A DNA stretch of 61,279 bases, counting the filler. It is 5 parts of 5 records of this genome, joined end to end, with 100 filler letters (N's around TTAATTAATTAA, not from the genome) between each part and the next. Parts side by side here need not be neighbours in the genome. Positions count along the whole stretch, not along the records: positions 1 to 21,172 come from SRR31156797_5072; 4 more parts are not named here. One strand, written 5' to 3'. Positions 4,061 through 21,272 of this stretch are shown piece by piece; the first letter of the stretch is position 1; each line of letters starts with the position of its first letter. The notes under the pieces are model-generated. The model searched no databases. It was not told where the DNA came from and was given only the letters and a program-made list of their open reading frames with translations. A program made the position numbers and the translations under genes.

Positions 4061-5596
4061 ATGATTGCGTTTGATGATTTGAGGAAGATTCTGCTGCTGG
4101 AAAACGTGAGCGATTCCATGTTGGGAAAAATGATCCCGTCATTGCAGATGCGCGTCTTTGGTGAACGGGGTATTGTATTTCAACAGGGAGATGAGGCGGA
4201 TCTGTTTTACATGCTGAAAGAGGGGAAAGTGCTTCTGGAAGTGGACGCTTCCGAGGAGATCAGTGTTTCCATCGGCGCCATGAAGGCGGGTTTTTCTTTC
4301 GGCTGGTCGGCTTTGTTTCCCGGTGCCAGTTATACCTCCACCGCCGTCTGCGTGGAACCCACCGAGGTCATCGCCATTCCGGGAAGGGATTTTATCCGGC
4401 TCATGGATGAGGAGCAGAATAATGGATACGGTATCCTGTGGAAAATCACGGCCATACTCCGTCGCCGCCTGGGACGTCGCACCGGCCAGTTTTTGAGGGC
4501 CATTGAGCAACACCCCGATATTCAGAAGATTTTTCAAGCCGATTTTGAAGGGCCCCACGAGTTTTTTGACAACATCTTCTTAAATTCGCCCATCGGCATT
4601 TTTATTATTCAAGACGGTAAATTTGTTTTTGCAAATCCCGAGTTCCAGAAAATATCAGGTTACACCGAATCTGAGATTACCAACATGAATTCGCTGAAAA
4701 TCGTGCACCGGGATGATAAAGAGCTCGTCCGGGAGAATGCCGTCAAGATGCTGAAGGGTCAACTTGCGAGTCCCTATGAACATCGGATTTTAACGAAGCA
4801 GAATGAGATTCGGTGGATCATCGAGACCGTAATATCCATCAACTACGAGGGCCGTAAAGCGGTCCTGGGTTATTTTATGGATAATACCAACTGTGTGCAC
4901 ACCCAGGAAGCGCTCAGCATTTCAGAGGACAAGTTTCAAAAAGCCTTTCGCTCCAGCCCCGACTGGTTCGTCATCTCCACGCTGGAAGGTTTTTACGTGG
5001 ACGTGAACGAAGCCTTCCTGCGGACCACCGGTTATACCAGCGAGGAGATTGTGGGTCGGAGTTCGGTTGATGTGGGTATCTGGGTCGATCCCCGGAAACG
5101 GGCCGAGATGGTGAAAATACTCAGCGAAAAGGGCGTTGTTCGCAATATGGAAGTGGAGTTCCGCATGAAATCCGGGGAAATCCGGCAGATGCTCTGGTCC
5201 GCTGAGGCCATCGATTACGGAGATGAAAAGTGCCTCATAGCGGCCACCCGCGACATCACGGACCGGAACCGCGCCCAGGAGGAACAGCTGGGTCGGGAAA
5301 AACTGGAAGGGGTCCTTGAGATCGCCGGGGCCACATGCCATGAAATTAATCAACCGCTGCAGTACATGTACCTGGTTCTCAATGAAGCCCTGAAGAAGGA
5401 TCCCCACAGCAAAAGCCTGTCTGAAATCAAGAAGCAGTGCGATCGCATCAAGGAGATCACCCAGAAAATGGAGACCATCACCGTTTGTGAATCCACCGAT
5501 TACGTTGGCGGCCAGAAGATGGTGGATATCTATCAGTCCGCCGGAAACGGTGCGTGCGGGCTGTCGGAAGAGGCAAAAGAGAGGCGGGACGGATAA
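4061..5596 (+). CDS. cNMP-binding domain + two PAS domains + HisKA-like phosphoacceptor, no HATPase domain
   Basis: N-terminal Crp-like fold (VFQQGDEAD..FGWSAL), two PAS repeats (NPEFQKISGY; NEAFLRTTGY), H-box ATCHEINQPL. The protein ends without N/G boxes. Confidence 0.85.
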   Translation: MIAFDDLRKILLLENVSDSMLGKMIPSLQMRVFGERGIVFQQGDEADLFYMLKEGKVLLEVDASEEISVSIGAMKAGFSFGWSALFPGASYTSTAVCVEPTEVIAIPGRDFIRLMDEEQNNGYGILWKITAILRRRLGRRTGQFLRAIEQHPDIQKIFQADFEGPHEFFDNIFLNSPIGIFIIQDGKFVFANPEFQKISGYTESEITNMNSLKIVHRDDKELVRENAVKMLKGQLASPYEHRILTKQNEIRWIIETVISINYEGRKAVLGYFMDNTNCVHTQEALSISEDKFQKAFRSSPDWFVISTLEGFYVDVNEAFLRTTGYTSEEIVGRSSVDVGIWVDPRKRAEMVKILSEKGVVRNMEVEFRMKSGEIRQMLWSAEAIDYGDEKCLIAATRDITDRNRAQEEQLGREKLEGVLEIAGATCHEINQPLQYMYLVLNEALKKDPHSKSLSEIKKQCDRIKEITQKMETITVCESTDYVGGQKMVDIYQSAGNGACGLSEEAKERRDG

Positions 5597-5732
5597 TCTT
5601 TCTCCCATACATGGGGAACGGTATGCCCATGAAACAACTTTACATATTGAAATGAATAGGGTAATAGCCCTTTAAAATCACACAATGTTCAATAGGCATA
5701 ATGAGTAATGCAATTCACTCTGTTAGAGAGCA

Positions 5733-7364
5733 TTGGCCATGACCCTCTTCAAAAGGGCCGGAAAAATTCTCTTTTTTCCGCTGTTTCTACTCCTTGCATC
5801 GGCGTATCTTTTCACCACATCAACCCTTGTCTATTCTGAACCTCGGAAAACCCCAGAATCAACCATCCGGGAACCCCGGGCGGGGTTGGGTCTCATGCAG
5901 GCGGTCCAGGTAACACTCTACAAACAGCCCGAAGTTCTGATTCAGCGGCAGGTGGTGGAGAGTTCTCGCGGCAACCTCCGGATGGAAGCGGGCATGTTTG
6001 ATCCGAGCCTGACCTCTTCGTTTCTCTATCAGACCAACGAGTATGCCCCCACCTACTGGCAGCAGCAGCTGTACGGAATCGGCGACCGGAGCTATTCCAC
6101 CACCGGATCTTCCATCGCTTTAGAGACCAAGTCCCGTTATGGGTTCAGTTTCGGCCCCAGCGTGGGCATTACCCGCAGTCATGGCATCACCGATTATCTG
6201 ATGCCCACCAGTTACAACCAGGCCATTGTTGCATTTTCCGTCAATGTTCCCTTGCTCAAGGGGATGGGAAAGGAGGCGGCCGATGCCCATGAAATGGCCG
6301 CCATGGAAGAGCTGGAAGCCAGCACCCTGGACCTTCAACAGACCATTTCCCGGAGCGTCATGAATACCACGCAGGCCTACTGGAATTATCTCAAGGCACT
6401 CCGGCAGTTTGAGGTCTTCCGGGAAATGGAATCGGATGCCGCAGAGACCCTCCAAGCCATAAAACACCTGGTTCAGGGGGATGAACGGCCGGCATCCGAT
6501 CTGGATCCCTTCGAGGCCAATCTGGCCCAGAAGACATCCCAGCGCATCAATGCGGGGCAAACGCTTTTCGAGGCCAAGCAGAATTTGGGGCTGGCCATGG
6601 GTCTGGCCTACGGCGCCATTGACAATCTGCCCCTTCCCGCGGATGTTTTTCCCGACACTGCATCGATGGGGCTTGCTTCCAACAACATGAATCCCGACGC
6701 CCTCTTTCAGGAGGCCCTTCGGAAGAGGCCGGATTATCGGGCGCTCAAGAAACGGGAAAACGCCGCCAAAATTCTTCTGACAGCCGCCAGAAACAATGTT
6801 CTTCCCCAACTGGACATCAATGCGGGGGTGGGATACGCGGGGCTTGAAAACGGCGGCGAGGTGAGCGATTATGTAAGATCCCTGGGAAAAAACGTCACGG
6901 GGGCCAACTACCAGGCGGGCATCCAGTTTAGATACCCTTTTGGAAACAACGAGGCGGAAGGGTTGGTGGTTCAACGCAGATCTGATCTGCAAAAGGTGGT
7001 GATAAGGACCCGGGATCTTGCGCGAAAGATCAATTCCGGCATATTGGTGGCGGTGCAGGCCCTGTGGCGAACCATCCGGGAACTGAAGGAAACCCGCAAT
7101 TCCATCGCCCACTACAAAAAGGCCGTATCCAGCGAAGAGATTAAATTCAGCATGGGAATGGCCTCGGTGATGGATGTCATCAACATGCAGGACAGGCTTC
7201 GGGATGTCCGGTTGAGCGAGGTGGCCCAGATGAACCGGTTCGCGGACGCCGTGGTGCAATTGGGTTTCGAGACGGGAACCCTTGTGATGGCCCAAGGGGA
7301 CACTTACCGGATCGAATTGAAAAATCTGACTTCGCCATGGTCCGCAAAGGAGCCCCGTCAATGA
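5733..7364 (+). CDS. TolC-family outer membrane efflux protein
   Basis: Signal peptide and OEP-type repeats (AYWNY.., LPQLDINAG, ALRKRPDY). First gene of a type I secretion operon. Start may be ATG 5739. Confidence 0.9.
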   Translation: MAMTLFKRAGKILFFPLFLLLASAYLFTTSTLVYSEPRKTPESTIREPRAGLGLMQAVQVTLYKQPEVLIQRQVVESSRGNLRMEAGMFDPSLTSSFLYQTNEYAPTYWQQQLYGIGDRSYSTTGSSIALETKSRYGFSFGPSVGITRSHGITDYLMPTSYNQAIVAFSVNVPLLKGMGKEAADAHEMAAMEELEASTLDLQQTISRSVMNTTQAYWNYLKALRQFEVFREMESDAAETLQAIKHLVQGDERPASDLDPFEANLAQKTSQRINAGQTLFEAKQNLGLAMGLAYGAIDNLPLPADVFPDTASMGLASNNMNPDALFQEALRKRPDYRALKKRENAAKILLTAARNNVLPQLDINAGVGYAGLENGGEVSDYVRSLGKNVTGANYQAGIQFRYPFGNNEAEGLVVQRRSDLQKVVIRTRDLARKINSGILVAVQALWRTIRELKETRNSIAHYKKAVSSEEIKFSMGMASVMDVINMQDRLRDVRLSEVAQMNRFADAVVQLGFETGTLVMAQGDTYRIELKNLTSPWSAKEPRQ

Positions 7365-8665
7365 CCCAAAAGAAAGCCGGCAGCCGTCTGTTTCGGAAGG
7401 TGGCTCTGGAACACCTCTCCCTGCCCGAACAACTGGACCAGTTGATGCGGATCACGAGCCCCGCGGGCTGGGTGGCCCTATTGGCCATAGGCCTTCTTCT
7501 GGCCTGCGGGATCCTTTGGGGGATCTGGGGCTCCATCCCCACAAAGGTCGAGGGTTCCGGAATCCTCATGGGCCGCGGCGGGATCTTCTCCATTTCGGCC
7601 AGGGCGCCGGGAAGCGTCCAGGCCATCCGCCTGGATGAAGGGGATGAAGTGGAAGCGGGACAGACGGTTGTGGTCATCGGGCAACCGGACATTCGTGATA
7701 ATATTTTGGCCGCTCAAAATGAAGTGCGCGACCTGAATGCCCAGTATGAGCAGCACCGTGCATTCGGCAAAAAAGAAATGGCCCTTGAGGAACGCTCCAT
7801 TATTGAACAGCGTACCAATCTGCTTCACACCAATGAAAGCCTGAAAGCCCAGCTGAAACTGCTCAAAAAGCGTTTGAAGGACCAGGAACGCCTGGTGGAA
7901 CTGGGGCTGATTACACGGATGAAGGTATTGGATACCCGGATTGAAATCGACAACCGAACCGAAAAAATCAGACAGAACAAAAACCAGATCAAGCAGCTTT
8001 TGATCCAAAAACTTCAGACCAAGAACCGCATCCAGGAGGAACTTCTGGATCTCAAAGGCCGGATTCAGATGGCCCAAGATGAACTTCAAGGCCTGGAGAA
8101 CAGCCTGCAGATGGATTCCAAGGCCATCAGCGTATTCACCGGCAGGGTCATCAGCGTGGATGTGGCCCTGGGCGATGTGGTGCAGACCGGATCACGGCTC
8201 ATGACCATCGAGAAGACCGGGCGATATTCGAGGTTTCTGCAGGCGATTCTGTATGTTCCGGCAAACCAGGGCAAAAAGATCCGTAGCGGAATGCGGGTTC
8301 ATGTGTCCCCCTCCACGGTGAAAAAGGACCGGTACGGTTCCATCATGGGATTGGCAACCTACGTCTCCGCCTTTCCCGCCAACCCGGAAGCCATGAAACG
8401 GGTCCTTCTAAACGAAAAAATGGTGGAGGAACTGACCAAAAACGGCCCGCCCATCGAGGTCAGGGTGGCCCTGGTGCCTGATTCACGGACCCAGAGCTGG
8501 TACAAATGGACATCCTCCGACGGTCCCCCCGTCTCCATTCATGCGGGAACCATGTGTACGGCAACGGCCATCGTGAAACGTCAGCCGCCCGTTCAACTGG
8601 TCATTCCCCTCATGAAAAAATATCTTTTGGGTGCCGGTGAGGACCCCATGCCGTGGGGAGAGTAG
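7361..8665 (+). CDS. NHLP bacteriocin system secretion protein (HlyD-family membrane fusion protein)
   Basis: LFRKVALEHLSLPEQLDQL..ITSP N-terminus and YKWTSSDGPP C-terminus typical of NHLP-system HlyD proteins. ATGA overlap with the TolC stop. Confidence 0.93.
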   Translation: MTQKKAGSRLFRKVALEHLSLPEQLDQLMRITSPAGWVALLAIGLLLACGILWGIWGSIPTKVEGSGILMGRGGIFSISARAPGSVQAIRLDEGDEVEAGQTVVVIGQPDIRDNILAAQNEVRDLNAQYEQHRAFGKKEMALEERSIIEQRTNLLHTNESLKAQLKLLKKRLKDQERLVELGLITRMKVLDTRIEIDNRTEKIRQNKNQIKQLLIQKLQTKNRIQEELLDLKGRIQMAQDELQGLENSLQMDSKAISVFTGRVISVDVALGDVVQTGSRLMTIEKTGRYSRFLQAILYVPANQGKKIRSGMRVHVSPSTVKKDRYGSIMGLATYVSAFPANPEAMKRVLLNEKMVEELTKNGPPIEVRVALVPDSRTQSWYKWTSSDGPPVSIHAGTMCTATAIVKRQPPVQLVIPLMKKYLLGAGEDPMPWGE

Positions 8666-8668
8666 CCC

Positions 8669-10849
8669 ATGGCCCATTCCTCCGGGATCTGGAAAAAGCG
8701 ACGCGTCAAAACCCCCACCATCCTTCAGATGGAGGCGACGGAGTGCGGTGCGGCCAGTCTTGCCATGGTTCTGGCCTATTACGGGCTTTACGTCCCTTTG
8801 GAGCAACTGCGCATTCAGTGCGGTGTATCCCGGGACGGGAGCAAGGCCAGCAACATCGTGAAAGCCGCCAAAAAGTACGGCATGACGGCCAAGGGTTTCA
8901 GAAAGGAACCCCAGGCCCTCAAAGACCTGCCGCTCCCCATGATCCTTTTCTGGAAATTCAATCATTTTCTCGTTCTTGAAGGTATCAAAGGGGATCACGC
9001 GTACCTCAACGATCCCGCAACCGGGCCGAAAAAAATTTCCGTCAAAGTGCTGGATACGGCCTTTACGGGGGTTGTGCTCACTTTCGAGCCGGAGGACGAT
9101 TTCAGAAAAGGGGGTCGGAAACCCAATGTCCTGGGATCCCTGAAACGAAGGTTTACGGGATGCGGAAAAGCCCTGGCCTATGTGGTGCTGGCAGGACTCT
9201 TTCTCATTGTACCGGGCCTGGTTTTTCCAGCTTATACCAAGGTCTTCCTGGACAATGTGCTCATCGACGGGTATACGTCCTGGCTCAGACCCCTTCTGTT
9301 GGCCATGGGAATCACGGCCGTTTTAAGTTTTGGTTTGACCTGGCTTCAGCGGTTTTTTCTCCTTCGATTTGAATTGCGCCTTTCCTTGAGCGGGTCGACC
9401 CGGTTTTTTCATCACATCCTGCGTCTTCCCATCCCCTATTTTTCTCAGCGCTTTGCAGGAGATCTGGCCACCCGGGTACATTTAAACGACAAGGTGGCCC
9501 AGCTTCTTTCGGGCCAGTTGGCCGTCACCGTGATTCATCTGATCACGGCAATCTTCTATGTGGCGCTCATGTTTCAGTACAGCATCCTTCTGACCTTCGT
9601 GGCCATGGGGTTCGCCCTGCTGAACCTGGTGGCGTTGAAAACGGCTTCCCATCGCAGAAAGAACGTGAACATGGCCCTTCAGCAGGATATGGGAAAGCTC
9701 ATGGGGCATACCATGACCGGTCTCCAGATGATCGAAACCTTGAAGGCAGGGGGAGCGGAAGCGGACTTTTTTACCCTATGGGCGGGCTACCAAAGCAAAG
9801 TGGTCAATTCGCAGCAAAGGCTGTCGGTTTCCACCCAGCTCCTCTCCGCCGTCCCCCCGACACTGCTCTCCCTGAACCACACCATCATGCTCTTTTTCGG
9901 AGCCGTACTCATTATGAACGGAGAGATGACCATCGGTACGCTCTTTGCGTTTCAGATCCTGATGATGGGCTTCATACAGCCCTTCAGCCGTTTTGTGGAC
10001 ATGGGAAGCCGGCTGCAGGAGATCCATGCGGACATCAACCGCCTGGATGACGTGACGGCCAACCCCCAAGATGAAACATTTGATGAACAACGGGCGGACC
10101 CGAAAACGCTGTCCCATGGATCCGTGAAACTGAACGGTCCCCTTGAACTGAAAAACATCACCTTCGGGTACAGCCCCCTGGAACCGCCGTTGATCAGGGA
10201 TTTCAACCTGACCTTGAATTCCGGCGCCCGAGTGGCGCTGGTGGGGGCCTCGGGATCGGGGAAATCCACGGTGGCAAAGCTGGCGGCCGGCCTCTACAAG
10301 CCCTGGGAGGGAGAAATCCTTCTGGACGGCCGACCCATGGCTTCCATTCCCAGGGAGGTCTTTGCCCACTCCGTGGCCATGGTGGACCAGGATATCTTCC
10401 TCTTTGAAGGGACCGTTCGTGAAAACCTGACCCTGTGGGACAGGACCCTTCCGGAAAAATCCCTGATCCGGGCGACCAGGGATGCCTGCATCCATGAGGA
10501 CATCGTTCTTCGTCCCGATGGATATGAGAGCGCCGTCGGTGAAGGGGGCGCCAATTTCAGCGGCGGACAGGCCCAGCGGTTGGAAATCGCCAGGGGATTG
10601 ACCGGCAATCCCGGCTTTTTGATCCTTGACGAAGCCACCAGTGCCCTGGATCCGGAAATCGAGGCACAAGTGGACACCCATTTAAGACGGCGGGGCCTCA
10701 GCTGTCTGATCATCGCCCACCGCCTGAGCACCATCCGGGATTGTGACGAGATTATTGTTCTGGACCGGGGAGTGGTGGTTCAGCGGGGCACACATCAGGA
10801 ACTAAACGCGCAAGTAGGGATTTATGCCGAGCTCATCAAATCACAGTGA
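8669..10849 (+). CDS. NHLP bacteriocin export ABC transporter with C39 peptidase, permease and ATPase domains
   Basis: TPTILQMEATECGAASL (catalytic Cys), GVSRDGS, FW.FNHF..DPA, Walker A GASGSGKS, signature FSGGQ. Confidence 0.95.
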   Translation: MAHSSGIWKKRRVKTPTILQMEATECGAASLAMVLAYYGLYVPLEQLRIQCGVSRDGSKASNIVKAAKKYGMTAKGFRKEPQALKDLPLPMILFWKFNHFLVLEGIKGDHAYLNDPATGPKKISVKVLDTAFTGVVLTFEPEDDFRKGGRKPNVLGSLKRRFTGCGKALAYVVLAGLFLIVPGLVFPAYTKVFLDNVLIDGYTSWLRPLLLAMGITAVLSFGLTWLQRFFLLRFELRLSLSGSTRFFHHILRLPIPYFSQRFAGDLATRVHLNDKVAQLLSGQLAVTVIHLITAIFYVALMFQYSILLTFVAMGFALLNLVALKTASHRRKNVNMALQQDMGKLMGHTMTGLQMIETLKAGGAEADFFTLWAGYQSKVVNSQQRLSVSTQLLSAVPPTLLSLNHTIMLFFGAVLIMNGEMTIGTLFAFQILMMGFIQPFSRFVDMGSRLQEIHADINRLDDVTANPQDETFDEQRADPKTLSHGSVKLNGPLELKNITFGYSPLEPPLIRDFNLTLNSGARVALVGASGSGKSTVAKLAAGLYKPWEGEILLDGRPMASIPREVFAHSVAMVDQDIFLFEGTVRENLTLWDRTLPEKSLIRATRDACIHEDIVLRPDGYESAVGEGGANFSGGQAQRLEIARGLTGNPGFLILDEATSALDPEIEAQVDTHLRRRGLSCLIIAHRLSTIRDCDEIIVLDRGVVVQRGTHQELNAQVGIYAELIKSQ

Positions 10850-13535
10850 CCAGGGATCCCGATCTTCGGCTGCCGCTTTTTCCGGTGGCGTGTCCGTTGC
10901 AGTGGCAGGAAACAGGCCCCTGTTGGCCCTGGACCCCCATTCCTTTTGGATCGTCAAAAGGGGGCAGGTGGACCTCTTTGTCGCCAGAATGGAAAACGGA
11001 AAAGTCAAAGGTCCACGCCACCATCTCTTTTGGATGGGAGAAGGAGATTATCTTTTCGGCATGGCCCTGAAAGAGTCAACCCATGAACTGGGCATCATGG
11101 CCTTGGGAAAGCCAGGGACGGAACTGATCCGTTATGACCGAGAGATCCTCGGCAAAGCATTGGCATCGGATTCGTCCGGAAAGACCATACTGCCTCACGT
11201 AGAGAGATGGATTGCCAGGTTGTCCCAGGTGGCAGGCGTTTCAAAGAGGGATGTTCCCGGCGGAGAAGCGTTTGACAGTGCGCTTGACGGATTTCACGAA
11301 ATCGTCATTCAGGGGGTTGCCGAGGAAGCGGAGAAGAAACAGATCAAGGATCGAGGCCGTTTTGATCAACGCATCCTTCAAGACCTGGCAGGACTGGAAA
11401 AGACCCTTTTCCATCTGGGCACCACCCTGTTTCGAAAACGGAAAACCGTTCTTGCACCGAGCAGGGCCGGCACATCCCTTTTTGCCTCCGCAATGGCGGT
11501 TGCCAAAGCCTCCGGCATAGAGACGGAAAGACTCTTAGATGCCGTGGCCGGGAAACAGAGGGACCTCACCCTGGACCATATTGCCAGGGCGGGCAATTTC
11601 TTTACCCGCCGGGTGGTGCTCACGCCGGGCTGGTCCGAAAAGGACAACGGTCCCCTCTTGGGCCGGTTGGAGGACGAAAACGGCGGGCGTTTTGTGGCCC
11701 TCATGCCGACCTCCCCCACGCGATATGCCCTTTACGATCCGGAAAAGGGAACCCGCACACCCATGACCAGGGCATTGGAGGAACATATCCGCGGGATAGC
11801 CCATACGTTCTATAGACCCTTTCCGTCTCAAACGCTTTCCATTCGCCATATCCTGCGATTCGTCCTTGCAGGGGTTCGGCGTGATCTGAGCATGATGGCC
11901 CTGGCGGGAGTGGGCGGGGCCCTCCTGGCCCTGTTGATTCCCATCATGACGGGGGTGATCATCGACGCGGTGATTCCCGAAGCCAACCGGGGCGAGCTGT
12001 TGCAGATCGCCCTGATCCTGGTGGTGAGCGTTTTCGCCGCGTTCATGTTCCAGATAACCCGGGTCATTGCCGTGGTCCGTATGGAAGGGCGGATGGGAGC
12101 GGGGTTGCAGGCGGCGGTCCTGGACCGTTTGCTGAACCTGCCGACCCCTTTTTTCCGCAAGTTCACCGCGGGTGATCTGGCCACCCGGGCCATGGGCGTC
12201 AACCATATTCGTCAGATCCTTTCGGGCGCCACCCTCACCACGGCCATGACGAGCATCTTCTCTTCCTTCAACCTCATCGTCATGTTTGTCTATGACTGGC
12301 ATCTCGCCCTTCTGGGCTTGGGCATAATCCTGATCACCCTTTTCATTTCAGGGTTTTTAGGCATTTCCATGGTCCGGTATCAAAGAGAGGTATTCAATAT
12401 CCAGGGGAAAAACGCAGGGATCGTTCTGCAGTTTCTTACGGGGATTGCCAAGCTCCGCATGACCGGAACGGAAGATCGGGCTTTCGGGGTGTGGGCGGAA
12501 AATTTTTCCAGGAAAAAAATCATCGATTTTAAATCCGGAAAACTGAACGCCGCTCTGGACACGGCCGTTTCTTTTATCCCAATGGTATCCACCATGTTGA
12601 TTTTCTGGTTTTTCTTAAAGTCCCGTATGTCGGGAATGAGCACCGGTCATTTTTTGGCCTTCAATGCCGCATTCGTAAGCTTTCAGACGGCATTGGTCCA
12701 GACAACGTTGGTTTTTTCCACCCTTCTCCACATCATTCCCCTGTGGGAGCGGTCAAAACCGATCCTTGGAACCGTCCCGGAGGTGGCTGAGGTCAAGACG
12801 GCCATCTCCGATTTCAGCGGCCGTGTGGCGGTGGACCATGTGACCTTTCGGTACCACCGGGACGGACCGGAGGTGCTCCGGGATGTGAGTCTTGAAATCG
12901 CACCCGGTGAATTCGTTGCGGTGGTGGGAAGTTCCGGTTCAGGAAAATCAACGCTTTTAAGGCTCCTTTTGGGGTTTGAAAAGCCGGAATCGGGGGTCGT
13001 TACCTATGACCGGCATGACCTGGCGCATCTGGACGTGAAGAGCGTTCGAAGACAGCTGGGCGTGGTCCTTCAGAACGGACGGGTCATGCCCGGAAGCATC
13101 CTCAAAAACATCACGGGCGCCGCCGACCTCTCCCTGGAAGATGCGTGGGAAGCGGCCCGCATGGTGGGGCTGGAGGAGGATATCAAGGCCATGCCCATGG
13201 GGATGCATACGCTCGTTCCGGCGGGAGGCGGCACCCTATCCGGCGGACAGCGCCAACGGCTCATTATTGCCAGGGCCATTGTAAAACGGCCCCGCATCCT
13301 CCTTTTTGATGAGGCCACCAGCGCCCTGGACAACCTCACCCAGGGGATTGTCATGGAAAGCCTCGAAAAACTGAAGGTCACGCGGCTGGTGATTGCGCAC
13401 CGGCTCAGCACCATCACCAACGCGGACCGGATCTATGTATTGGAACAGGGCAAAATCGTGGAGTCGGGAGCCTACGATCAACTGATGAAAGCAAACGGTT
13501 TCTTCCACCGGCTTGCCGTACGGCAGATTGCGTAA
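10824..13535 (+). CDS. NHLP bacteriocin export ABC transporter permease/ATPase (second subunit)
   Basis: N-terminal cNMP-like region, W..KDNGPLL motif, TM domain, GSSGSGKS, LSGGQ. Usual partner of the C39-ABC. Confidence 0.92.
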   Translation: MPSSSNHSDQGSRSSAAAFSGGVSVAVAGNRPLLALDPHSFWIVKRGQVDLFVARMENGKVKGPRHHLFWMGEGDYLFGMALKESTHELGIMALGKPGTELIRYDREILGKALASDSSGKTILPHVERWIARLSQVAGVSKRDVPGGEAFDSALDGFHEIVIQGVAEEAEKKQIKDRGRFDQRILQDLAGLEKTLFHLGTTLFRKRKTVLAPSRAGTSLFASAMAVAKASGIETERLLDAVAGKQRDLTLDHIARAGNFFTRRVVLTPGWSEKDNGPLLGRLEDENGGRFVALMPTSPTRYALYDPEKGTRTPMTRALEEHIRGIAHTFYRPFPSQTLSIRHILRFVLAGVRRDLSMMALAGVGGALLALLIPIMTGVIIDAVIPEANRGELLQIALILVVSVFAAFMFQITRVIAVVRMEGRMGAGLQAAVLDRLLNLPTPFFRKFTAGDLATRAMGVNHIRQILSGATLTTAMTSIFSSFNLIVMFVYDWHLALLGLGIILITLFISGFLGISMVRYQREVFNIQGKNAGIVLQFLTGIAKLRMTGTEDRAFGVWAENFSRKKIIDFKSGKLNAALDTAVSFIPMVSTMLIFWFFLKSRMSGMSTGHFLAFNAAFVSFQTALVQTTLVFSTLLHIIPLWERSKPILGTVPEVAEVKTAISDFSGRVAVDHVTFRYHRDGPEVLRDVSLEIAPGEFVAVVGSSGSGKSTLLRLLLGFEKPESGVVTYDRHDLAHLDVKSVRRQLGVVLQNGRVMPGSILKNITGAADLSLEDAWEAARMVGLEEDIKAMPMGMHTLVPAGGGTLSGGQRQRLIIARAIVKRPRILLFDEATSALDNLTQGIVMESLEKLKVTRLVIAHRLSTITNADRIYVLEQGKIVESGAYDQLMKANGFFHRLAVRQIA

Positions 13536-13551
13536 GAGTGAGGGCCACAGC

Positions 13552-14763
13552 ATGAAAATCAAGTTCATCCTTCCGATGGTTCTGTTCCTTTTGCCGGCTT
13601 CCTGCATTGTGCCGGAAAACCCGGCCGGGGAGCGGACGGAACGGGCGAAACAGGCCCATGGGGATATCTTTGTGGGCGCTGTTGCACCCTGGTCCGCCAT
13701 TGACGTCCTCTTGTGGGAAGGGATCGCCATGGCCGTCCATGAAATCAACCATTCGGGCGGGGTTTTGGGCCGGAAGATCCGGGTTCTCAAGCGGGACGAT
13801 GAAAGCAGCATCAAAAAAGGGATCCTGATCGCTCAGGAATTGGGAGAGAACCCTGATATCGTGGCGGTTATGGGACATTATGAATCGTTCATCACCCTGC
13901 CGGCTTCCGTGGTCTACCAGTATTACGGCCTCCTGATGCTCTCAACCGTCGATACCAACCCCGATCTCACGCGGCAAGGCTTTCCCCTGGTCTTTCGCAC
14001 CGTGCCCAACGACGTCGAATACGGCAGGAGACTGGCCGATTTCTGCCGCCAAAAAGGATTCCATCGGTTGCTGGTGATGCTTGAGCGGAGCGAATACGGC
14101 AGGGATTTTTCAGACGCCTTTGCCACGGTGGCCCAGAGCGCGGCCCTTCATATCCTGGACGGCGCCTCCTACGACCGGATGACCGGAGACAAGGAACTTG
14201 GAAGGATTCTTGAGCGGTGGAAGGAGCGCTATTCATTTGATGCGATCCTGCTCTCCGGCGATCTCCCCCAGTCCGCCGCCATCATCCGGGAAGCCCGGCT
14301 GATCGGGATCGAGCAGCCGATTATCGGCGGCATCGCCATGGACCAAAAAAGGCTTCTTTCCCTGGTGGGGAAAGAGACCAAAGACGTGTTTCTCCCCACC
14401 AACTTTTATCCCCATTCAACCTCCCCTGAAGTGGAGCGGTTTGTGAAGCACTTTCAAAAACGGTACGGCCGTATGCCCGATGTTCTGGCGGCCCAGGGGT
14501 ACGATACGGTTCACGCCCTGGCGTACGCCGTCAAAGAGGCGGGAACCACGGCCCCCCATGAAATGGCGCATGCCCTCCGGGCTGCGGACGACCTGCGGGG
14601 CGTCACCGGAAACATGCGGTTTTCAAGGGAGGGAGACCGCATCATGGACAGAATTTTCATCAAAATGGTGGAGGACGGGGAATTCAAGTTCCTAAATCCC
14701 GCATCGGAGGGTGGTGGGATGATGTCGGAGAACTCTTGTGAACAGTCAGAAGTCGGCGGATAG
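13552..14763 (+). CDS. LivJ/branched-chain-amino-acid-type periplasmic solute-binding lipoprotein
   Basis: Lipobox LPASC, AVHEINHSGGVLGRKI, AAQGYD and GVTGNMRF motifs. Starts 16 bp after the ABC stop. Confidence 0.88.
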   Translation: MKIKFILPMVLFLLPASCIVPENPAGERTERAKQAHGDIFVGAVAPWSAIDVLLWEGIAMAVHEINHSGGVLGRKIRVLKRDDESSIKKGILIAQELGENPDIVAVMGHYESFITLPASVVYQYYGLLMLSTVDTNPDLTRQGFPLVFRTVPNDVEYGRRLADFCRQKGFHRLLVMLERSEYGRDFSDAFATVAQSAALHILDGASYDRMTGDKELGRILERWKERYSFDAILLSGDLPQSAAIIREARLIGIEQPIIGGIAMDQKRLLSLVGKETKDVFLPTNFYPHSTSPEVERFVKHFQKRYGRMPDVLAAQGYDTVHALAYAVKEAGTTAPHEMAHALRAADDLRGVTGNMRFSREGDRIMDRIFIKMVEDGEFKFLNPASEGGGMMSENSCEQSEVGG

Positions 14764-14794
14764 GTGGTTCGGAGCGTTATGGGAACGTGGGAAC

Positions 14795-14891
14795 GGGGAC
14801 GTTCTTGACTTATTAACTTTAGTGATATGAATGGGGGAAACAGAATCAAAAGCAAATCCTTACGTAAAGTTTATAAGTTAACAGCGTCCCC
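14795..14891. repeat. ~97-bp REP/MITE-like element with terminal inverted repeats, copy 1
   Basis: GGGGACGTTCTTGACTTAT ... ATAAGTTAACAGCGTCCCC (16/19 inverted match). Second copy at 17627-17718. Confidence 0.75.
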
Positions 14892-15023
14892 ATTTCCACG
14901 CATGTGGGTGTGGGCAACATGGAGCGCCTTTCCATAAAAAGGTAAAACGCTTTAAAAGGGTCGATTATGATGCTTCGGCCTTCCTTTTTCATCCGGGGAT
15001 CTGTTTGGCTTACGGTTGGAACC

Positions 15024-15200
15024 TGGCTCCCGACAGACCAATTGTGTCCATCAGGAGCGGCGAATATGCAATTTGAGGGCCTTGATCATCTGAAACCTCC
15101 TGAATAGAGGTGAAGGTTAGGTGAGAATACCGAAGAATCTTCAATAAGACGACAAAAAGCGCCTTGTGTCAAGGAAAAAATGGGCGTTCACAACGGTTCC
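15024..15200 (-). repeat. duplicated promoter + micro-ORF + hairpin module, copy 1
   Basis: Aligns with 20709-20884. Minus strand has TTGACA (15167-15172), AGGAGG (15096-15101), a micro-ORF and a 13-bp stem (15026-15058). Confidence 0.85.
15051..15089 (-). CDS. 12-aa micro-ORF MIKALKLHIRRS, copy 1
   Basis: AGGAGG 6 nt upstream of ATG. The identical peptide is encoded at 20736-20774 with four synonymous differences. Confidence 0.7.
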   Translation of the reverse strand: MIKALKLHIRRS

Positions 15201-15275
15201 ACGGTCCATGGTTGTAGGTCGAAAAAATCTGCAATCTTAGTGCGTTAGGAATTTCAGAAACAGCATACTTAGTTA

Positions 15276-15304
15276 TTGACATTTCACGAAACGCTTGTCA
15301 TCAT
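15276..15304 (+). promoter_or_regulatory. possible sigma70 promoter for the precursor/radical SAM pair
   Basis: TTGACA-N17-CATCAT, with a TGACA..TGTCA inverted repeat across it. Confidence 0.35.
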
Positions 15305-15490
15305 TTCCGGATGGCACGGATGTCATTGACCGGGAAATAGCCGTATTGAAAAAGCACGATCGCACAGGCCGGCCTTCTGGTTGGGCCGGCAGCCTAAACT
15401 CAAAGACCCGGACCCAAAAAGACAGATAAGCAAAGTGTCCCTGGAATTTCTCATGAAATATAATTATTTCTATAAAACTGGAGGGTTGTT

Positions 15491-15961
15491 ATGGATGATC
15501 AATCTGAAAAAATACTAGGAGCCGTAAAAGAGGTGCTGAAAAAATCGCTTTCCAATGAGAAAATCCGTGAGATGTGTTTAAATTCTCCCCTGGCGGTCGT
15601 TCTTGACTGCATGGATACGAAGATTCCAGAGGATTTCACCATCCGATTTGTTGAGGACATGGATGATGCGGTCAAAGAAATGTTTGTTGAAAGCAGCCTT
15701 GATATGAAAGAGACGGGGGATGCATTTAAACAGATTCTAACCATTGCATCAATTGATCGAAAATTTCGAAGACAATGCCTGGAAGACCCTGAACTTGTGC
15801 TGGGAAAATCCATTAAAACAGATTTGCCTGACGACATGGCGGCAAAGTTCAAGGAAAAAATTCGGGAAAATATCTTTCAGCTTCCGCCCGGATATGATCG
15901 GGAACTCAATGAAGAAGAGCTGGAAAAGGTGGCCGGCGGAACCGATAATCCCTGCAATTAA
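15491..15961 (+). CDS. NHLP-leader family RiPP precursor with a tandem duplicated leader and 6-aa core (TDNPCN)
   Basis: Two leader-like repeats (AVKEVLKKSLSNEKIREMCLNSP.. / AFKQILTIASIDRKFRRQCLEDP..), then LPP..ELNEEELEKVAGG double-glycine site. GGAGG RBS. Confidence 0.85.
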   Translation: MDDQSEKILGAVKEVLKKSLSNEKIREMCLNSPLAVVLDCMDTKIPEDFTIRFVEDMDDAVKEMFVESSLDMKETGDAFKQILTIASIDRKFRRQCLEDPELVLGKSIKTDLPDDMAAKFKEKIRENIFQLPPGYDRELNEEELEKVAGGTDNPCN

Positions 15962-15987
15962 GATGGTTTGAGTTAAGGGATTTCCCC

Positions 15988-17640
15988 ATGAACGTCATAT
16001 TTGTAAACTCGATCCATTATAATGAGATTATCCGATATCCCATTGGCACCATACCACTGGGGACCTTGACATTAGCCACTATCTTAAAAAAGCGAAACCA
16101 TGATGTTAAGATTATTGACTTCAATTATCTGGTAAATGAAAAAAAAATAACGCTCGGCCGGGATGCTCCGGACACCCTCCGCCGGTTCGGCGAGCATATC
16201 CTTAAACAACGGCCGGAAATGATTTGTTTCTACACGGTAGCGCTCTCTTATCATAATACGGTGCTCGTAGCCAGGCACATCAAAGAAAGAAGCCCGCAAA
16301 TCCCCATAATCTTCGGCGGACCACATGCCTCACATACTCCCTATGAATCAATGAAAGCCTTTCCATGGATAGATGTCATTGCCGTCGGGGAGGCGGACCA
16401 TGTCATTGAAAGGATTGTCGGGGCATTTTCCGGCAATGAAAATATGAGAAATATCCCGGGGATTCTTTACAGAGAAGATAGTGACATCCGGCAAACGAAA
16501 CCCGCGGAAGACATATGCAACCTGAGTGATCTCCCGGAACCGGATTATTCGTTAACCCCTTTTTTCAAAATGCTCCCATTTATCTCAATTGATCCTGGAA
16601 GAAGCTGCCCGTTTCGTTGTAAATACTGCTCTACCAGCACCTTCTGGAAAAACAGTTTTCGTCTGAAAAGCATTGGGAAGATCCTGGAAGAAATTAAATA
16701 TTTCCATTTTACGTATCAAATAAAAAACTTCTATTTGACGCACGACATTTTTACCTATAACAGGGAGAGACTCCTTGAGTTTTGTGAAAAAATTTTGGAG
16801 GAAGGTCTTGATATCCGGTGGTCTTGCAGCTCCAGGGCCGATACGCTGGATGAGGAAATGATCGTAATGATGAAGAAATCCGGCTGTAAGGCGATTTCAC
16901 TGGGTATTGACAGCGGTTCTCCACGCATTCAGAAGGTCATCAATAAAAACCTGAATCCGGGCCATGCGTTGGATGCGATAAAGATATTGTGCAAATACCG
17001 GATGGATGTCAAAATCAATTTCATGGTCGGTTTTCCGGAAGAAACAGAAGAAGATGTCCTGTTGACATTGAAAATGATGAGGGCCTGTATTGAATCAGGG
17101 GTAAAGAACATATCCTATAAACCGTTAATGATACTTGCCGGTACAAAATATTACGATGAATATAAAGCGCATCTGGTCCTGGATGGTTTTCGATCTTACT
17201 ACAATGACGTATATGATTATAAATACTGCGTGGACATGATAAAAAAATACCCGAAGATATTTTCGCATTTTTACAATATTAAAATTCCGTTACGGCAAGG
17301 TTTGAACCATTTTGCGCTTTTCATTAAACTATATTATATTTACCTGCACCGTGTCCTTCAGCTGACGTATGAATATATTTTGGCCTATTATGAAGATAAT
17401 TTTATAAAAATCTTTTATGATTTCAGAAAGGCCAACGAAAATTTCCATGAGGACGTCATACAATACAGACGGAAGTCTATGCGAAAACAAATTACGGATG
17501 GGGTATTTTTTGATTTGTTGATAACGCAATTCAAACGCTATTTGTTTTCAACAAAATTTGGAGAAATGACAAGCCTTATCCGTTTCTATTTTCAAGTGGA
17601 ATCCGGAGGGGTTGAAAGGGGAGAGCGGGGACGTTCTTAA
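15988..17640 (+). CDS. B12-binding domain radical SAM protein (class B methyltransferase-like)
   Basis: N-terminal cobalamin domain (PLGTLTLA, IIFGGPHAS, GEAD), CPFRCKYC motif, GIDSGSPRIQ. AT-richer than the transport genes. Confidence 0.92.
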   Translation: MNVIFVNSIHYNEIIRYPIGTIPLGTLTLATILKKRNHDVKIIDFNYLVNEKKITLGRDAPDTLRRFGEHILKQRPEMICFYTVALSYHNTVLVARHIKERSPQIPIIFGGPHASHTPYESMKAFPWIDVIAVGEADHVIERIVGAFSGNENMRNIPGILYREDSDIRQTKPAEDICNLSDLPEPDYSLTPFFKMLPFISIDPGRSCPFRCKYCSTSTFWKNSFRLKSIGKILEEIKYFHFTYQIKNFYLTHDIFTYNRERLLEFCEKILEEGLDIRWSCSSRADTLDEEMIVMMKKSGCKAISLGIDSGSPRIQKVINKNLNPGHALDAIKILCKYRMDVKINFMVGFPEETEEDVLLTLKMMRACIESGVKNISYKPLMILAGTKYYDEYKAHLVLDGFRSYYNDVYDYKYCVDMIKKYPKIFSHFYNIKIPLRQGLNHFALFIKLYYIYLHRVLQLTYEYILAYYEDNFIKIFYDFRKANENFHEDVIQYRRKSMRKQITDGVFFDLLITQFKRYLFSTKFGEMTSLIRFYFQVESGGVERGERGRS

Positions 17641-17718
17641 CTTATTAACTTAAGTCATATGAATGGGGGAAACAGTATCAAAGGCAATTGATCGCGTCAA
17701 ATTTTAAGTTAACAGCGT
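17627..17718. repeat. REP/MITE-like element, copy 2 (right end clipped), supplying the radical SAM stop codon
   Basis: GGGGACGTTCTTAACTTATTAACT..ATGAATGGGGGAAACAG..TAAGTTAACAGCGT aligns with 14795-14891. Confidence 0.75.
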
Positions 17719-17738
17719 TATTCCTGGGTGGACGGTCG

Positions 17739-17861
17739 GCGGACAACCTGCGGGGCGCCACCGGAAACATGCGGTTTTCAAGGGATGGAGACCGCATCAT
17801 GGACAAGATTTTCATCAAGATGGTGGAGGAGGGGCAATTCAAGTACCTTAATCCCGGATAA
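17739..17861 (+). pseudogene. 3' fragment of a paralog of the solute-binding lipoprotein
   Basis: Encodes ADNLRGATGNMRFSRDGDRIMDKIFIKMVEEGQFKYLNPG*, nearly identical to 14584-14701. Confidence 0.85.
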
Positions 17862-17898
17862 GAATTAACAACTTCACCCTTGTCCACAGGGCTTGTCA

Positions 17899-18508
17899 CT
17901 ACGCAATTGGAGCGTTCACACACGGGATAGCCAGACCGGACAAATCAATACAGTTCTCTAAAACGTCACCAGCGATTCCCTGATCATCCCAATTCCCCCC
18001 CAACGACAGTCTCCAATAACTCCACAGGCAATTCATCACGATAAGGCGATATCGGAACCACAAAATGACGGATACGCTCCGTGTTTTCCAGGACGACCGC
18101 TTTCATCCCGGCCGGCAACTGAATGCCGTTTTTTTCCAGGACGCCGTTGGGGTCATCCATCAATCGGTACTTGAAGCCGGCATCATTTTGTGTCTTGGTG
18201 ATGAGCCTTTTGTAGGCCCTTTTGAATTCATATAACCGCTTGAGATCTCCTCGACTTTTTTTATACGCTTCTTCTTCCTCCAAACGTTTTTCAGGCGGTT
18301 CATGGTAAGGTATCGGCGTCGGTAAAACCACATGATACAAATCATCCGTATTTTCTACCACAACGGCCTCAACCCCCGCTTCCAGCTCCATGCCGGTTTC
18401 CCGGACCACAGCGGTGGGGTCGGCCTGTAACTTGGCTTTGAAGTCGGCATCCAGCCAGGTCCTGGCCACCAGTTTGGCGAAAGCTTGCTTGAAATTATCT
18501 TTGTCCAT
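17899..18508 (-). CDS. NHLP-leader family RiPP precursor with tandem leader, frameshifted at a G7 tract (as sequenced it stops at 17984)
   Basis: GAGAGG RBS. Two leader repeats (KLVARTWLDADFKAKLQADP..VVENTDDLYHVVLP / RLITKTQNDAGFKYRLMDDP..VLENTERIRHFVVP), then ELPVELLETVVGG. Removing one G gives core NWDDQGIAGDVLENCIDLSGLAIPCVNAPIA followed by TAG TGA. Confidence 0.8.
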
Positions 18509-18654
18509 GAGATTCCTCTCCACTGATCCTCACAAGTTGCGTTCCCTCTGATTCAGCCTGACGTCGTCAAAACTCCAGCACTTCCTTCTCAACCGAACAG
18601 TCATATTCTTCCAGCAGATCGACCCCGGCTGTCACGGCTTCCAGCTCCGTGGCT

Positions 18655-18726
18655 GTGGTGCGTTTCAATATGTTCGGGCACCATTGGTTGCGGCTCCGTT
18701 GGCTTCCAAGCCCACGACCGGAAGCC
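18655..18726 (-). pseudogene. 72-bp coding relic paralogous to the N-terminal part of the radical SAM relic at 20335-20406
   Basis: GFRSWAWKPTEPQPMVPEHIETHH versus GFRSRAWKPTEPQSMLPEHIEIDH. Many differences are synonymous third-position changes. Confidence 0.7.
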
Positions 18727-18788
18727 GGCACACGCTTCGAATTAGAAATTCAATCAGAGGATTTCTTCTAAACTAAAGCATTGTTGCA

Positions 18789-19616
18789 TTATTCTTTAGA
18801 ATATGCTCTTTTTGCCCAATCTTGAGTTATCTGCTCATAAACCCCATTTGACTGAATAATCTTAATCCCTTCTTTATATTTTTGAAGGGCCCACTCTCCT
18901 TTAGGATTTGATTTGCTAAATCCGATATGGAGCTCTAATTTTGTGCTATGAAATGCCAACGCAACTTTTCCCGACATCCCTGCTTTCCGTATGATAAAGT
19001 CTGCGGGTTTTGTTTCATTATTCCACAAAATAACGGTATCAAGACGACCCGTTCCAAGTTTCCTTATATTCATTTCTTCAGAGCGGGTTTTTTCAACAAT
19101 GATCTTACCCTCTTTTTCCAATTTATAAAATATGTCATCATATTCATACCCTATTACTGTTCCAACAATGGTTCCTTTTTTGACATCTTCAGATTTTGAA
19201 GCGCTTAAAGGATTTTCAGTATTATGGAAATAACTTATATACGCAAAAAAAAGCGGGATTTCAGGAAACGTTATGATGTTTTCTACCTCCGGGATTTTTG
19301 CCATATTAAAACATCCAACCGCTTCTCCTGTTTCCGTATATTTTTTACACCTTGCGTAGGGAACCACCTCAAAATAAACATCCACATCAACTGCATCATA
19401 AATCGCTTTTACAAGATCATTCGCATAACCGGTCCCATCCGCTTTAGACCAGGGAGCTGCATCATTTTCAACATAAATCTTCAGCTTTTCCCTGCCTTCT
19501 GCATTTTGAGCTACCATCAGAAAGATTAAAATAGTCAAAACAACAGGGAGCATCCGGAATTTTTGATTATGCCATTTATTTTGAGCCGAATTTTGCATCA
19601 TTTTGCCATTGATCAC
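18789..19616 (-). CDS. extracellular solute-binding protein, family 3-like
   Basis: Signal peptide, then ENDAAPWS..GYANDLV..VPYARC..VIGYEY..G.Y.QI pattern. True start may be a downstream Met. AT-rich. Confidence 0.8.
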   Translation of the reverse strand: MINGKMMQNSAQNKWHNQKFRMLPVVLTILIFLMVAQNAEGREKLKIYVENDAAPWSKADGTGYANDLVKAIYDAVDVDVYFEVVPYARCKKYTETGEAVGCFNMAKIPEVENIITFPEIPLFFAYISYFHNTENPLSASKSEDVKKGTIVGTVIGYEYDDIFYKLEKEGKIIVEKTRSEEMNIRKLGTGRLDTVILWNNETKPADFIIRKAGMSGKVALAFHSTKLELHIGFSKSNPKGEWALQKYKEGIKIIQSNGVYEQITQDWAKRAYSKE

Positions 19617-19637
19617 TCTGCTGGTAGCGTTCCTAAT

Positions 19638-19699
19638 GGGGTCAAATCACCCTTTGACGCTTGGTTATTTCAGCAAGAGTCAAGAGCGGATTTGACCCC
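19638..19699. repeat. 62-bp palindromic REP-like element
   Basis: GGGGTCAAATCaccctTTGAC-N20-GTCAAgagcgGATTTGACCCC. It sits where homology of the radical SAM relic ends. Confidence 0.8.
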
Positions 19700-20406
19700 G
19701 TTTCATGGGCCTTTAGAAACGCAATTTTCTCTTCGTCCAGCAGGGTGGCATTGGTGGTCATCCCGTATCTCACCTCTTTTCCAAGTGCCCATGCCCTTTT
19801 GTCGGCATGGGCCACCACATGCCGGATCAACGGAAAATTCATCAGGGGTTCGCCGCCGCTAAAGAGGATCCCCACCGACTTTCTTTGGCCGGATTGGGCC
19901 ATGAGCCAGTCCACGGCCCTTGTTGCGGTGGCTCCGTTCATCTTTTCTTCACTGCCGCCCTCCCCGGTGTTCCCGTAGCAGTAGACGCAGTTGAGGTTGC
20001 ACTGTCGGGTGATGTTCATGGACAGGGTCCCCACGGGTTCTGCCATGAGCTTTTTAATGAGGTGATCCATTCCGGGTCTGTTCATCCCCGGCGAATGGAA
20101 TGGTGCATCTTCCTTGGGGGCGCCCGCAACCAGGCCCAAGTTCTCCAGTTCTTCCATGACCGGGGAAGGGACCAGGCACCCCTTATTGAACCGGATTTGG
20201 TCCAGGATACGGGCCATGCGGTCATCAATAACCGCACTGGTCAAGGCGTGGACGTTCAAGAGATACTTCGTGCCGCCATGACGGAACAGGTGATAGGGCA
20301 CAAGGGAGATGTTACAGTAGTATGTTTTTCCGTTATGGTCTATTTCAATATGTTCAGGCAGCATGGATTGCGGCTCCGTCGGTTTCCAGGCCCGCGAGCG
20401 GAATCC
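19700..20406 (-). pseudogene. truncated peptide-maturase-type radical SAM enzyme
   Basis: NITRQCNLNCVYCY, FSGGEPLMN, TTNATLLDEE. The C-terminal half of the barrel and any SPASM domain are missing. Confidence 0.85.
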
Positions 20407-20440
20407 CTCACGGACTCTAATCCTTCTGTGATTTAGCCGG

Positions 20441-20656
20441 AATATAATCGATCTCTTCTTTTTCAAACAGGGTCCCATTGGTGGTGGCGTAGAAAATAAC
20501 TTCTTTTTGGGCCGCATGGGTCCTTTTCCGGGCATACGAAACAATTTTCTGCATGAGCGGAAAATTTAAGAACGGTTCACCGCCGAAGAATCCAATCCGG
20601 ATCTTCTTGACATTCCCGGACTGTTCAATGAGCCAATCCACCGCCTGAAAAGCGGT
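20441..20656 (-). pseudogene. internal fragment of a second paralogous radical SAM enzyme
   Basis: TAFQAVDWLIEQSG..FFGGEPFLNFPLM..ATTNGTL aligns with the adjacent relic. No CxxxCxxC motif is retained. Confidence 0.85.
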
Positions 20657-20708
20657 TTATTCCACCATTTTCCGGAAGATGCCGGCGGGATTCGGGTTGA
20701 AAAGCGCT

Positions 20709-20884
20709 TGGCCCCCGACGGAGGAACCGTGTCTGTTAGGAGCGGCGAATATGCAATTTAAGGGCTTTAATCATCCGGAACCTCCTGAATAGATGTGAAG
20801 GTTTGGGGAGAAGAACGTATAATATTTGATGAAACGACAAAAAGCACATGGTGTCAAGGAAAAAAGGGCCATCAAAAGGGTTCC
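20709..20884 (-). repeat. duplicated promoter + micro-ORF + hairpin module, copy 2
   Basis: Aligns with 15024-15200. TTGACA at 20852-20857, AGGAGG at 20781-20786, weaker stem at 20711-20743. Confidence 0.85.
20736..20774 (-). CDS. 12-aa micro-ORF MIKALKLHIRRS, copy 2
   Basis: ATG ATT AAA GCC CTT AAA TTG CAT ATT CGC CGC TCC TAA, with AGGAGG 6 nt upstream. Confidence 0.7.
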   Translation of the reverse strand: MIKALKLHIRRS

Positions 20885-21172: not shown

Positions 21173-21272
21173 NNNNNNNNNNNNNNNNNNNNNNNNNNNN
21201 NNNNNNNNNNNNNNNNTTAATTAATTAANNNNNNNNNNNNNNNNNNNNNNNNNNNNNNNNNNNNNNNNNNNN
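21173..21272. other. artificial contig linker
   Basis: 44 N + TTAATTAATTAA + 44 N. Confidence 0.99.

Follow-up and report, generated by a model that had tools for sequence, protein, structure and literature searches.

This study asks whether a peptide-export locus, in which two small precursor proteins each carry two nitrile hydratase leader peptide (NHLP) units beside a B12-binding radical S-adenosylmethionine (SAM) enzyme, is one coherent pathway for a peptide synthesized ribosomally and modified post-translationally (RiPP), or an exporter with cargo of mixed origin. The locus lies in a window of 61,279 nucleotides (nt), the whole stretch of DNA that was analyzed, from an anaerobic relative of sulfate reducers. 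The window consists of contigs joined by an identical artificial linker (N44, TTAATTAATTAA, N44) at positions 21173-21272, 30973-31072, 41267-41366, and 52140-52239. Because these linkers are artificial, adjacency across them is not real, and the contig of the locus comprises positions 1-21172, stopping directly before the first linker. We favor, at a probability of roughly 0.6, the reading that a conserved NHLM exporter is followed by a recombination-prone cargo region, which holds a foreign cassette of precursor A and the B12 enzyme as well as an orphan precursor B, both precursors having a doubled architecture that is widespread.

The doubling is seen most clearly in precursor B, which is encoded on the minus strand at 17984-18508 (ATG start, 174 residues) or 17984-18523 (GTG start, 179 residues). 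The ATG at 18508 is the likelier start, with GGAGAGG in front of it. The protein consists of two NHLP units followed by VVGG, ELG, and the stop codon, and the curated leader model TIGR03793 matched it in two stretches (104.7 bits). Its halves are 43% identical (E 2e-19), and it aligned collinearly over both units with P0003, the nearest database relative (38% over 167 residues, E 2e-35). A match to a solved NHLP leader was also obtained (8tb1_A, E 1.4e-10), and the score against TIGR03795 (NHLP-Burk) was 24.8 bits, under the cut-off of 41. A word-indexed homolog search with precursor B returned two true nitrile hydratases and nothing else, and a single-sequence fold reached a pLDDT of 48, too low for use.

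Precursor A (15491-15961, plus strand, 156 residues) has two NHLP units, VAGG, and a six-residue core, TDNPCN, and is preceded by a ribosome-binding site, GGAGG, 6 nt upstream of the ATG. Its halves share 25% identity over 52 residues (E 4e-6). TIGR03793 covered a single stretch, residues 79-150, at 51.8 bits, which is barely over the cut-off of 50.9. We then used a unit hidden Markov model (HMM) built from 23 single-unit proteins, which matched residues 8-61 (i-E 0.0027) and 72-151 (i-E 1.5e-7). An AlphaFold2 model of precursor A (82-row alignment; mean pLDDT 76.7, with 83-92 over the first 50 residues) showed the order helix-helix-helix-strand-strand twice, and then a helix over the tail. 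This model is not fully independent evidence, because the alignment consisted of two-unit proteins. When the model was compared with the PDB by Foldseek, no match was obtained at E <= 0.001; the top rows were nitrile hydratase alpha chains with a TM score of about 0.33, and 8tb1 ranked 15th (rmsd 2.4 over 45 columns). The original prediction, made from the letters of this DNA, had described two precursors with two NHLP units and one double-glycine tail each, and this description stands. Its expectation that NHLP HMMs would match each protein twice was borne out for precursor B by TIGR03793 and for precursor A by our own unit HMM but not by TIGR03793, and its expectation of two leader folds agrees with the AlphaFold2 model of precursor A.

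Next, the spread of the doubled architecture was analyzed. A HMMER search over 1.84 billion cluster representatives with precursor B as the query gave 1892 matches at E <= 1e-3. Among the best 150 of these, two NHLP units were found in 118 proteins, three in 2, four in 3, and one in 27, a ranking in which the doubled query favors doubled proteins. True nitrile hydratases accounted for 2 of the 118. TIGR03793 matched all of the 82 aligned members. Of 120 proteins, 68 had the tail motif behind the last unit and 6 had it behind the first, and in precursors A and B the L(X)4L motif and the GG are confined to the second unit. As judged from these profile matches, the architecture is that of an extra, tail-less NHLP unit preceding a complete one, with the tail (L(X)4L and GG) on the complete unit only. 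The cores behind the doubled leaders were diverse: among the 82 aligned members, core matches were to type 2 lantibiotics (14), cinnamycin (6), class IIb bacteriocins (6), and thiocillin (2). In 87 tandem proteins with a recognizable GG, the median core length was 30 residues, and cores of at most 10 residues occurred in 10 of the 87, with tail lengths down to 0 and 1. The three-unit proteins are P0019 and P0123, and the four-unit proteins are P0027, P0053, and P0097. We also observed that P0017, P0020, and P0026, which have doubled leaders, carry a near-identical hydrophobic stretch directly after the GG, which we take to resemble the N-terminal helix of type IV pilins.

Tandem forms were scarce when whole genomes and loci were searched. 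None was found among 21 NHLP open reading frames (ORFs) in 84 fetched loci, none in 151 genomes of the class of the two sister genomes introduced below (any NHLP match being present in 4), and none in 401 genomes of their phylum, where two doubtful pairs were checked. These two same-frame pairs of matches, from Desulfobacterota genomes, were rejected as tandem genes because they proved to be adjacent single-unit genes. Tandem NHLP proteins were present in 3 of 301 cyanobacterial genomes, and one cyanobacterial tandem precursor adjoins HlyD, C39-ABC, ABC2, and a radical SAM enzyme that lacks the B12 domain. No loci were obtained when P0003 and P0004 were each used alone as the query of a locus search. 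Judging from these searches, doubled NHLP is a widespread and little-noticed variant, common among database clusters but rare per genome, and is not peculiar to this locus. The claim that the doubled leader is special to the locus or to B12 enzymes is contradicted by the two-unit majority among the best 150 clusters and by the other enzymes in cyanobacteria. The search for tandem precursors elsewhere, a check that the original prediction had proposed, did recover relatives widely among database clusters, but these are not tied to B12 enzymes, and their cores belong to several RiPP classes. Another cyanobacterial protein (L102, 8887-9573, plus strand) has two NHLP units, a Trp-rich hydrophobic segment after each, and no GG site.

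A possible origin of the doubling is suggested by nitrile hydratase itself. In true nitrile hydratase alpha chains, the NHLP unit is matched at two places that are collinear with the two units of precursor B (15-69 against 59-113 and 115-164 against 133-182 of 3qz5_A), so the doubled leaders may retain the layout of an ancestral nitrile hydratase, an enzyme having an internal repeat. When units were compared with these repeats, unit 1 was nearer repeat 1 in 94 of 118 proteins, and unit 2 was split, 65 being nearer repeat 1 and 53 nearer repeat 2. In the full-text literature, no description of tandem NHLP leaders was found, the search covering openly licensed PMC articles and bioRxiv. The doubled leader as a common architecture thus appears to be undescribed in the literature searched. 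The proposal of an undescribed subfamily therefore survives in part: no earlier description of a tandem NHLP leader was found, but the doubling is generic across core classes. The excerpted text of Haft, Basu and Mitchell (2010, PMC2887384) describes fused NHLP-Burk (TIGR03795) pairs in Delftia acidovorans and Acidovorax avenae, which similarly have two NHLP-type units per polypeptide. As presented there, those fusions are two full precursors of a thiazole/oxazole-modified microcin cluster, each with its own C-terminus, whereas here unit 1 is tail-less and there is one core. A bolder extension, which we regard as rather unlikely, is that di-NHLP precursors constitute an unrecognized, phylum-spanning NHLP branch and that, in members whose tails are ultrashort (precursor A, for example), the doubled leader in its folded form would be the scaffold on which a B12 radical SAM enzyme turns the last six residues into a very small product for export.

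The core of the locus is an NHLP/Nif11-type (NHLM) export operon (TolC, HlyD, C39-ABC, ABC2, and binding protein), which is conserved in Desulfatiglandales. All of its genes are on the plus strand. A TolC-like outer membrane channel (5733-7364) was recognized by Pfam OEP (1.6e-33) and scored 76 bits, under the cut-off, with TIGR01844. It is followed by an HlyD-type adaptor for NHLP bacteriocin export (7337-8665; TIGR03794, 348.7 bits, cut-off 156.2), a C39 peptidase/permease/ATPase subunit (8669-10849; TIGR03796, 1070.9 bits, cut-off 853.3; Pfam Peptidase_C39, 2.7e-37), and a second ABC permease/ATPase subunit without a peptidase domain (10824-13535; TIGR03797, 894.3 bits, cut-off 709.4). The translation of C39-ABC contains ECGAASL (Cys context) and NHFLVL (His context), which we take to be the Cys and His motifs of the C39 peptidase. 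The HlyD, C39-ABC, and ABC2 equivalogs are co-encoded in adjacent, partly overlapping genes, which defines an NHLM export system. The complete TolC-HlyD-C39/ABC-ABC operon of the original prediction was therefore confirmed, with three curated NHLP-bacteriocin export models over cut-off and TolC recognized by Pfam OEP. The gene of a periplasmic solute-binding protein (13513-14763; Pfam Peripla_BP_6, 1.5e-42), missing from the earlier gene list, overlaps the end of the operon and is the last gene of the block that is common to the sister genomes.

These sisters are the nearest genomes, two Desulfatiglandales metagenome-assembled genomes (L005 and L006) whose ABC2 proteins are 78% and 77% identical to that of the locus. 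Window positions 5623-14721 (to 14727) are collinear with both at 83% DNA identity. What follows the binding-protein gene in the sisters is a set of single-unit NHLP precursors, whose Cys-containing cores have 25-27 residues, and two radical SAM/SPASM maturases; these full-length maturases scored 597.5 (L005) and 404.8 bits with TIGR04064, the model of nif11-like peptide radical SAM maturases. On our contig, precursor A, the B12 enzyme, and precursor B had no DNA match in L005 or L006, and the downstream pieces are shuffled. Full-length maturases at the TIGR04064 cut-off of 518.7 bits are lacking on the contig, which has fragments only, and these had been missed by the original prediction. Both are on the minus strand. 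The first is an N-terminal fragment (19642-20544; 184.3 bits, profile 2-187 of 459) with 82% nt identity to the 487-residue maturase gene of L005, and the second (20417-20641; 100 bits, profile 117-185 of 459) has 79% nt identity to the 478-residue gene of L005. L005 too contains one maturase fragment.

The composition and flanks of the cargo further indicated a mosaic. The exporter genes have a GC content of 55.5-57.4%, against 42.9% for precursor A, 40.7% for the B12 enzyme, and 50.4% for precursor B. The low-GC cassette made up of precursor A and the B12 enzyme is flanked by direct repeats of ~100 nt, and precursor B lies outside it on the opposite strand. The left copy of the repeat (D3, about 14784-14887) contains a long imperfect hairpin (DNA fold z -4.07) and is 82-86% identical to the right copy (D3', 17616-17718), where most of the hairpin pairing is lost. 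Directly behind the right copy, the final 127 nt of the binding-protein gene occur again as a gene fragment on the plus strand (17733-17859), with 90% identity to both 14578-14704 and L005 13772-13898. A separate assembly of a sequencing run (X1, probably of the same sample) recovered 13400-20951 with 0 differences at a depth of 37; since it is identical over this interval, the gene arrangement is not an artefact of one assembler. Short matches of the flanking repeat in other X1 contigs suggest a dispersed element. In this assembly, a joint of 15179 to 17626 on another contig of 57 kb was considered as an empty site and rejected, because it has 28-33 matching letters per side; it was read as a dispersed repeat.

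The B12-binding (class B) radical SAM enzyme is encoded at 15988-17640 on the plus strand, 27 nt after precursor A. Its presence, as originally stated, was confirmed by the Pfam domains B12-binding (residues 22-143, 5.4e-11) and Radical_SAM (203-363, 1.7e-26). The cluster cysteines C207, C211, and C214 (CX3CX2C) were invariant across 31 aligned relatives, which gives the protein the features of a class B radical SAM enzyme. It scored 117.4 bits with TIGR03975, the model of RiPP maturation radical SAM C-methyltransferases (cut-off 281.85). The best curated match was the ApyD family (NF050148; 298.5 bits, cut-off 750; E 9.6e-89; profile 26-484 of 645). In a search of 5.8 billion proteins, the closest relatives were at most 42% identical, and a metagenome scan with the enzyme gave one distant locus at 21% identity. 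Two relatives with genome context are clostridial and have a small ORF upstream (34-39 residues, 48% identical), an MFS transporter downstream, and no NHLP gene. Because the best curated match is ApyD and the upstream ORF is conserved in the clostridial relatives, the clade looks like one of peptide maturases. The clostridial set of small ORF (L001 838-957 plus and L002 5666-5770 plus), enzyme, and MFS transporter in itself looks like an uncharacterized small RiPP system. Our contig is the sole example of the enzyme paired with a doubled NHLP precursor.

We propose the following sequence of events. The older cargo, kept in the sisters as single-unit precursors and two maturases, has been broken up in this genome, and its place is now taken by two newer pieces: a horizontally acquired, low-GC two-gene cassette of precursor A and the B12 radical SAM enzyme, and precursor B as a separate orphan gene. 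The enzyme would bind the leader of precursor A, the folded leader holding the substrate, and would modify the hexapeptide TDNPCN, most likely by C-methylation. The C39 domain would then cut after the GG, and the ABC-HlyD-TolC pump would export the small product. The extra N-terminal unit would act as an accessory folded domain, possibly with a role as a second docking surface or in stability. Precursor B would be a precursor that is frameshifted or decaying, or else a leader carrying next to no cargo.

Several results weigh against this proposal. No relative of the enzyme adjoined an NHLP gene in four genome loci or in one metagenome locus; the pairing with precursor A therefore rests on adjacency and shared composition in one genome. 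The chemistry is a guess, because the enzyme scores under every curated family cut-off. The first unit of precursor A was not reported by TIGR03793 and is weak by the curated model, the word-indexed homolog search found no relatives of precursor A, and its six-residue core is at the short end of the range of tandem proteins. Promoter and terminator scans gave 10 and 5 sites, compared with 7.9 and 4.8 in shuffled sequences, which is no excess. Moreover, the broken neighboring genes make it more likely that the cargo region in its entirety is in decay.

This last point leads to the alternative that survives best, namely that the exporter has been kept while precursor B, and possibly precursor A and the enzyme, are non-functional remnants of recombination whose short cores are truncations. 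We consider it unlikely. It would account for the two maturase fragments, the duplicated gene end, the shuffling of pieces relative to the sisters, and also the maturase fragment in L005. It also draws on precursor B, whose GG codons form a run of seven G (G7), with the stop three codons later; the frame -1 stretch (17899-17995, minus strand, within the ORF 17899-18063 minus) is open for 31 codons after the run and contains two Cys. The ELG stop is thus possibly the product of a frameshift. However, by our estimate an open frame of 31 codons arises by chance about 1 time in 5, and BLAST of the -1-frame tail against every fetched protein and ORF gave no relative (best E 5.8). Decay fits the cassette less well, since precursor A and the enzyme have full-length frames, a good ribosome-binding site, and all clade-invariant residues. 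The core of precursor A cannot be longer in any frame, with the enzyme gene beginning 27 nt later.

The reading that goes back to the original prediction is instead that of a single coherent RiPP subfamily, undescribed so far, in which the B12 enzyme acts on both precursors and the tandem leader mimics a dimer or recruits two enzymes. The two precursors do share their architecture, at a distance of no more than 2.6 kb from the enzyme, and different enzymes are reported on different NHLP surfaces in the excerpted text of PMC12455567, so two units could offer two docking sites. Nevertheless, we find this account improbable. The repeat-flanked cassette is absent from both sisters, and precursor B is outside it with a different GC content and on the opposite strand; precursors A and B are 34% identical over 94 residues, and their cores, TDNPCN and ELG, are unrelated. 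The contig has a single intact modifying enzyme, the doubled architecture is combined elsewhere with many classes of core and with other enzymes, and the excerpts of the NHLP structure papers mention no leader dimer. A third view, that doubled NHLP proteins are not classical precursors but nitrile-hydratase-alpha-like scaffolds or partners, whose C-terminal residues are released as a small molecule or which help an enzyme, could appeal to the collinear double match of true nitrile hydratase alpha chains and to the recurrence of ultrashort tails (10 of 87 with 10 residues or fewer), but it is highly improbable: the canonical L(X)4L-GG tail, with a C39 exporter beside it, is in keeping with leader removal of the usual kind, the cores of tandem proteins are mostly ordinary (median 30 residues), and some of the short tails may come from truncated gene calls.

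With the mosaic reading of conserved exporter and exchanged cargo preferred, the locus can be compared with known systems. Exporter, leader family, and class B radical SAM maturases had all been known before. Proteusins of the polytheonamide type combine an NHLP leader with a radical SAM epimerase and B12 radical SAM C-methyltransferases, and their core has tens of residues. The locus is similar in its NHLP leader and in the B12 radical SAM enzyme adjoining a precursor, but it has no epimerase, a six-residue core, and an enzyme under the TIGR03975 cut-off. Profile searches found no YcaO, LanM, or epimerase gene on the contig, which ends at 21172, in agreement with the earlier observation; the epimerase model was not among the matches listed (best 25 families per protein) for either radical SAM gene, and there was no other intact candidate gene. 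The label "proteusin-type" is thus not upheld, the enzyme being under the cut-offs for both TIGR03975 and ApyD. The NHLP and Nif11 families with a three-gene NHLM export system were described by Haft, Basu and Mitchell, as the excerpts of that paper show. Similarly, the exporter and leader models are over cut-off here, the tail has GG, and variable cargo adjoins the exporter. Unlike in that system, the leader unit occurs twice per protein, the cores have 6 and 3 residues, cyclodehydratase and LanM are absent, and TolC and binding-protein genes are part of the operon.

ApyD, in the excerpted text of PMC10635010, is a B12 radical SAM Tyr C-beta-methyltransferase of the aminopyruvatide pathway, which methylates the residue next to the precursor C-terminus. 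ApyD is the best curated match of the enzyme described here, and the target residue of ApyD, as described there, is at the extreme C-terminal end of its precursor. However, the precursor here is unrelated, the MNIO, P450, and methyltransferase partners are absent, and the profile alignment is partial. For the solved NHLP leader MprE7-TH1 (PDB 8tb1), the excerpts of PMC10858898 give three helices, two strands, and a disordered tail with L(X)4L. This published topology appears twice in the predicted model of precursor A, although no significant Foldseek match was obtained.

Among RiPP leaders of the "protein-like" kind, those of the NHLP family have been studied best, and in recent structural work they are treated as a single folded unit. 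The large set of natural precursors with two, three, or four units, in which the tail for recognition and cleavage is on the last unit only, is already at hand for testing how such leaders are read by enzymes and by the C39 exporter, and it bears on the stacking of leader units for engineering. For genome mining, the exchange of cargo behind a conserved exporter means that the exporter is the stable anchor and the cargo is not. The locus itself is a poor experimental model, given its disrupted surroundings and an enzyme-substrate pair that stands as the sole example; the interest lies in the family-wide doubling pattern and not in the scrambled locus.

The remaining features of the window are as follows. 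On the locus contig, the genes from the TolC-like gene to the B12 radical SAM gene are on the plus strand, and those from precursor B to the maturase fragments are on the minus strand. Between precursor B and the maturase fragments lies a low-GC (36.8%) solute-binding-like gene (18789-19616, minus strand; Pfam SBP_bac_3, 4.9e-5, under cut-off), of which 19211-19408 matches L005 at 87%. An Rfam scan of 13400-21172 gave 0 matches at E <= 0.1. The other contigs of the window belong to the same draft and carry housekeeping genes (rpoB, ispG, dprA, obg, and acyl-CoA ligases), with no additional NHLP gene beyond 21172. Directly upstream of the exporter, a protein with cyclic nucleotide monophosphate (cNMP)-binding and PAS domains is encoded at 4061-5596 on the plus strand. 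In L005, a "bacteriocin-type transport-associated" cNMP-binding protein (21359-21901, plus strand) is encoded beside the cargo genes and scored 152.6 bits with TIGR03896, slightly under the cut-off of 161.

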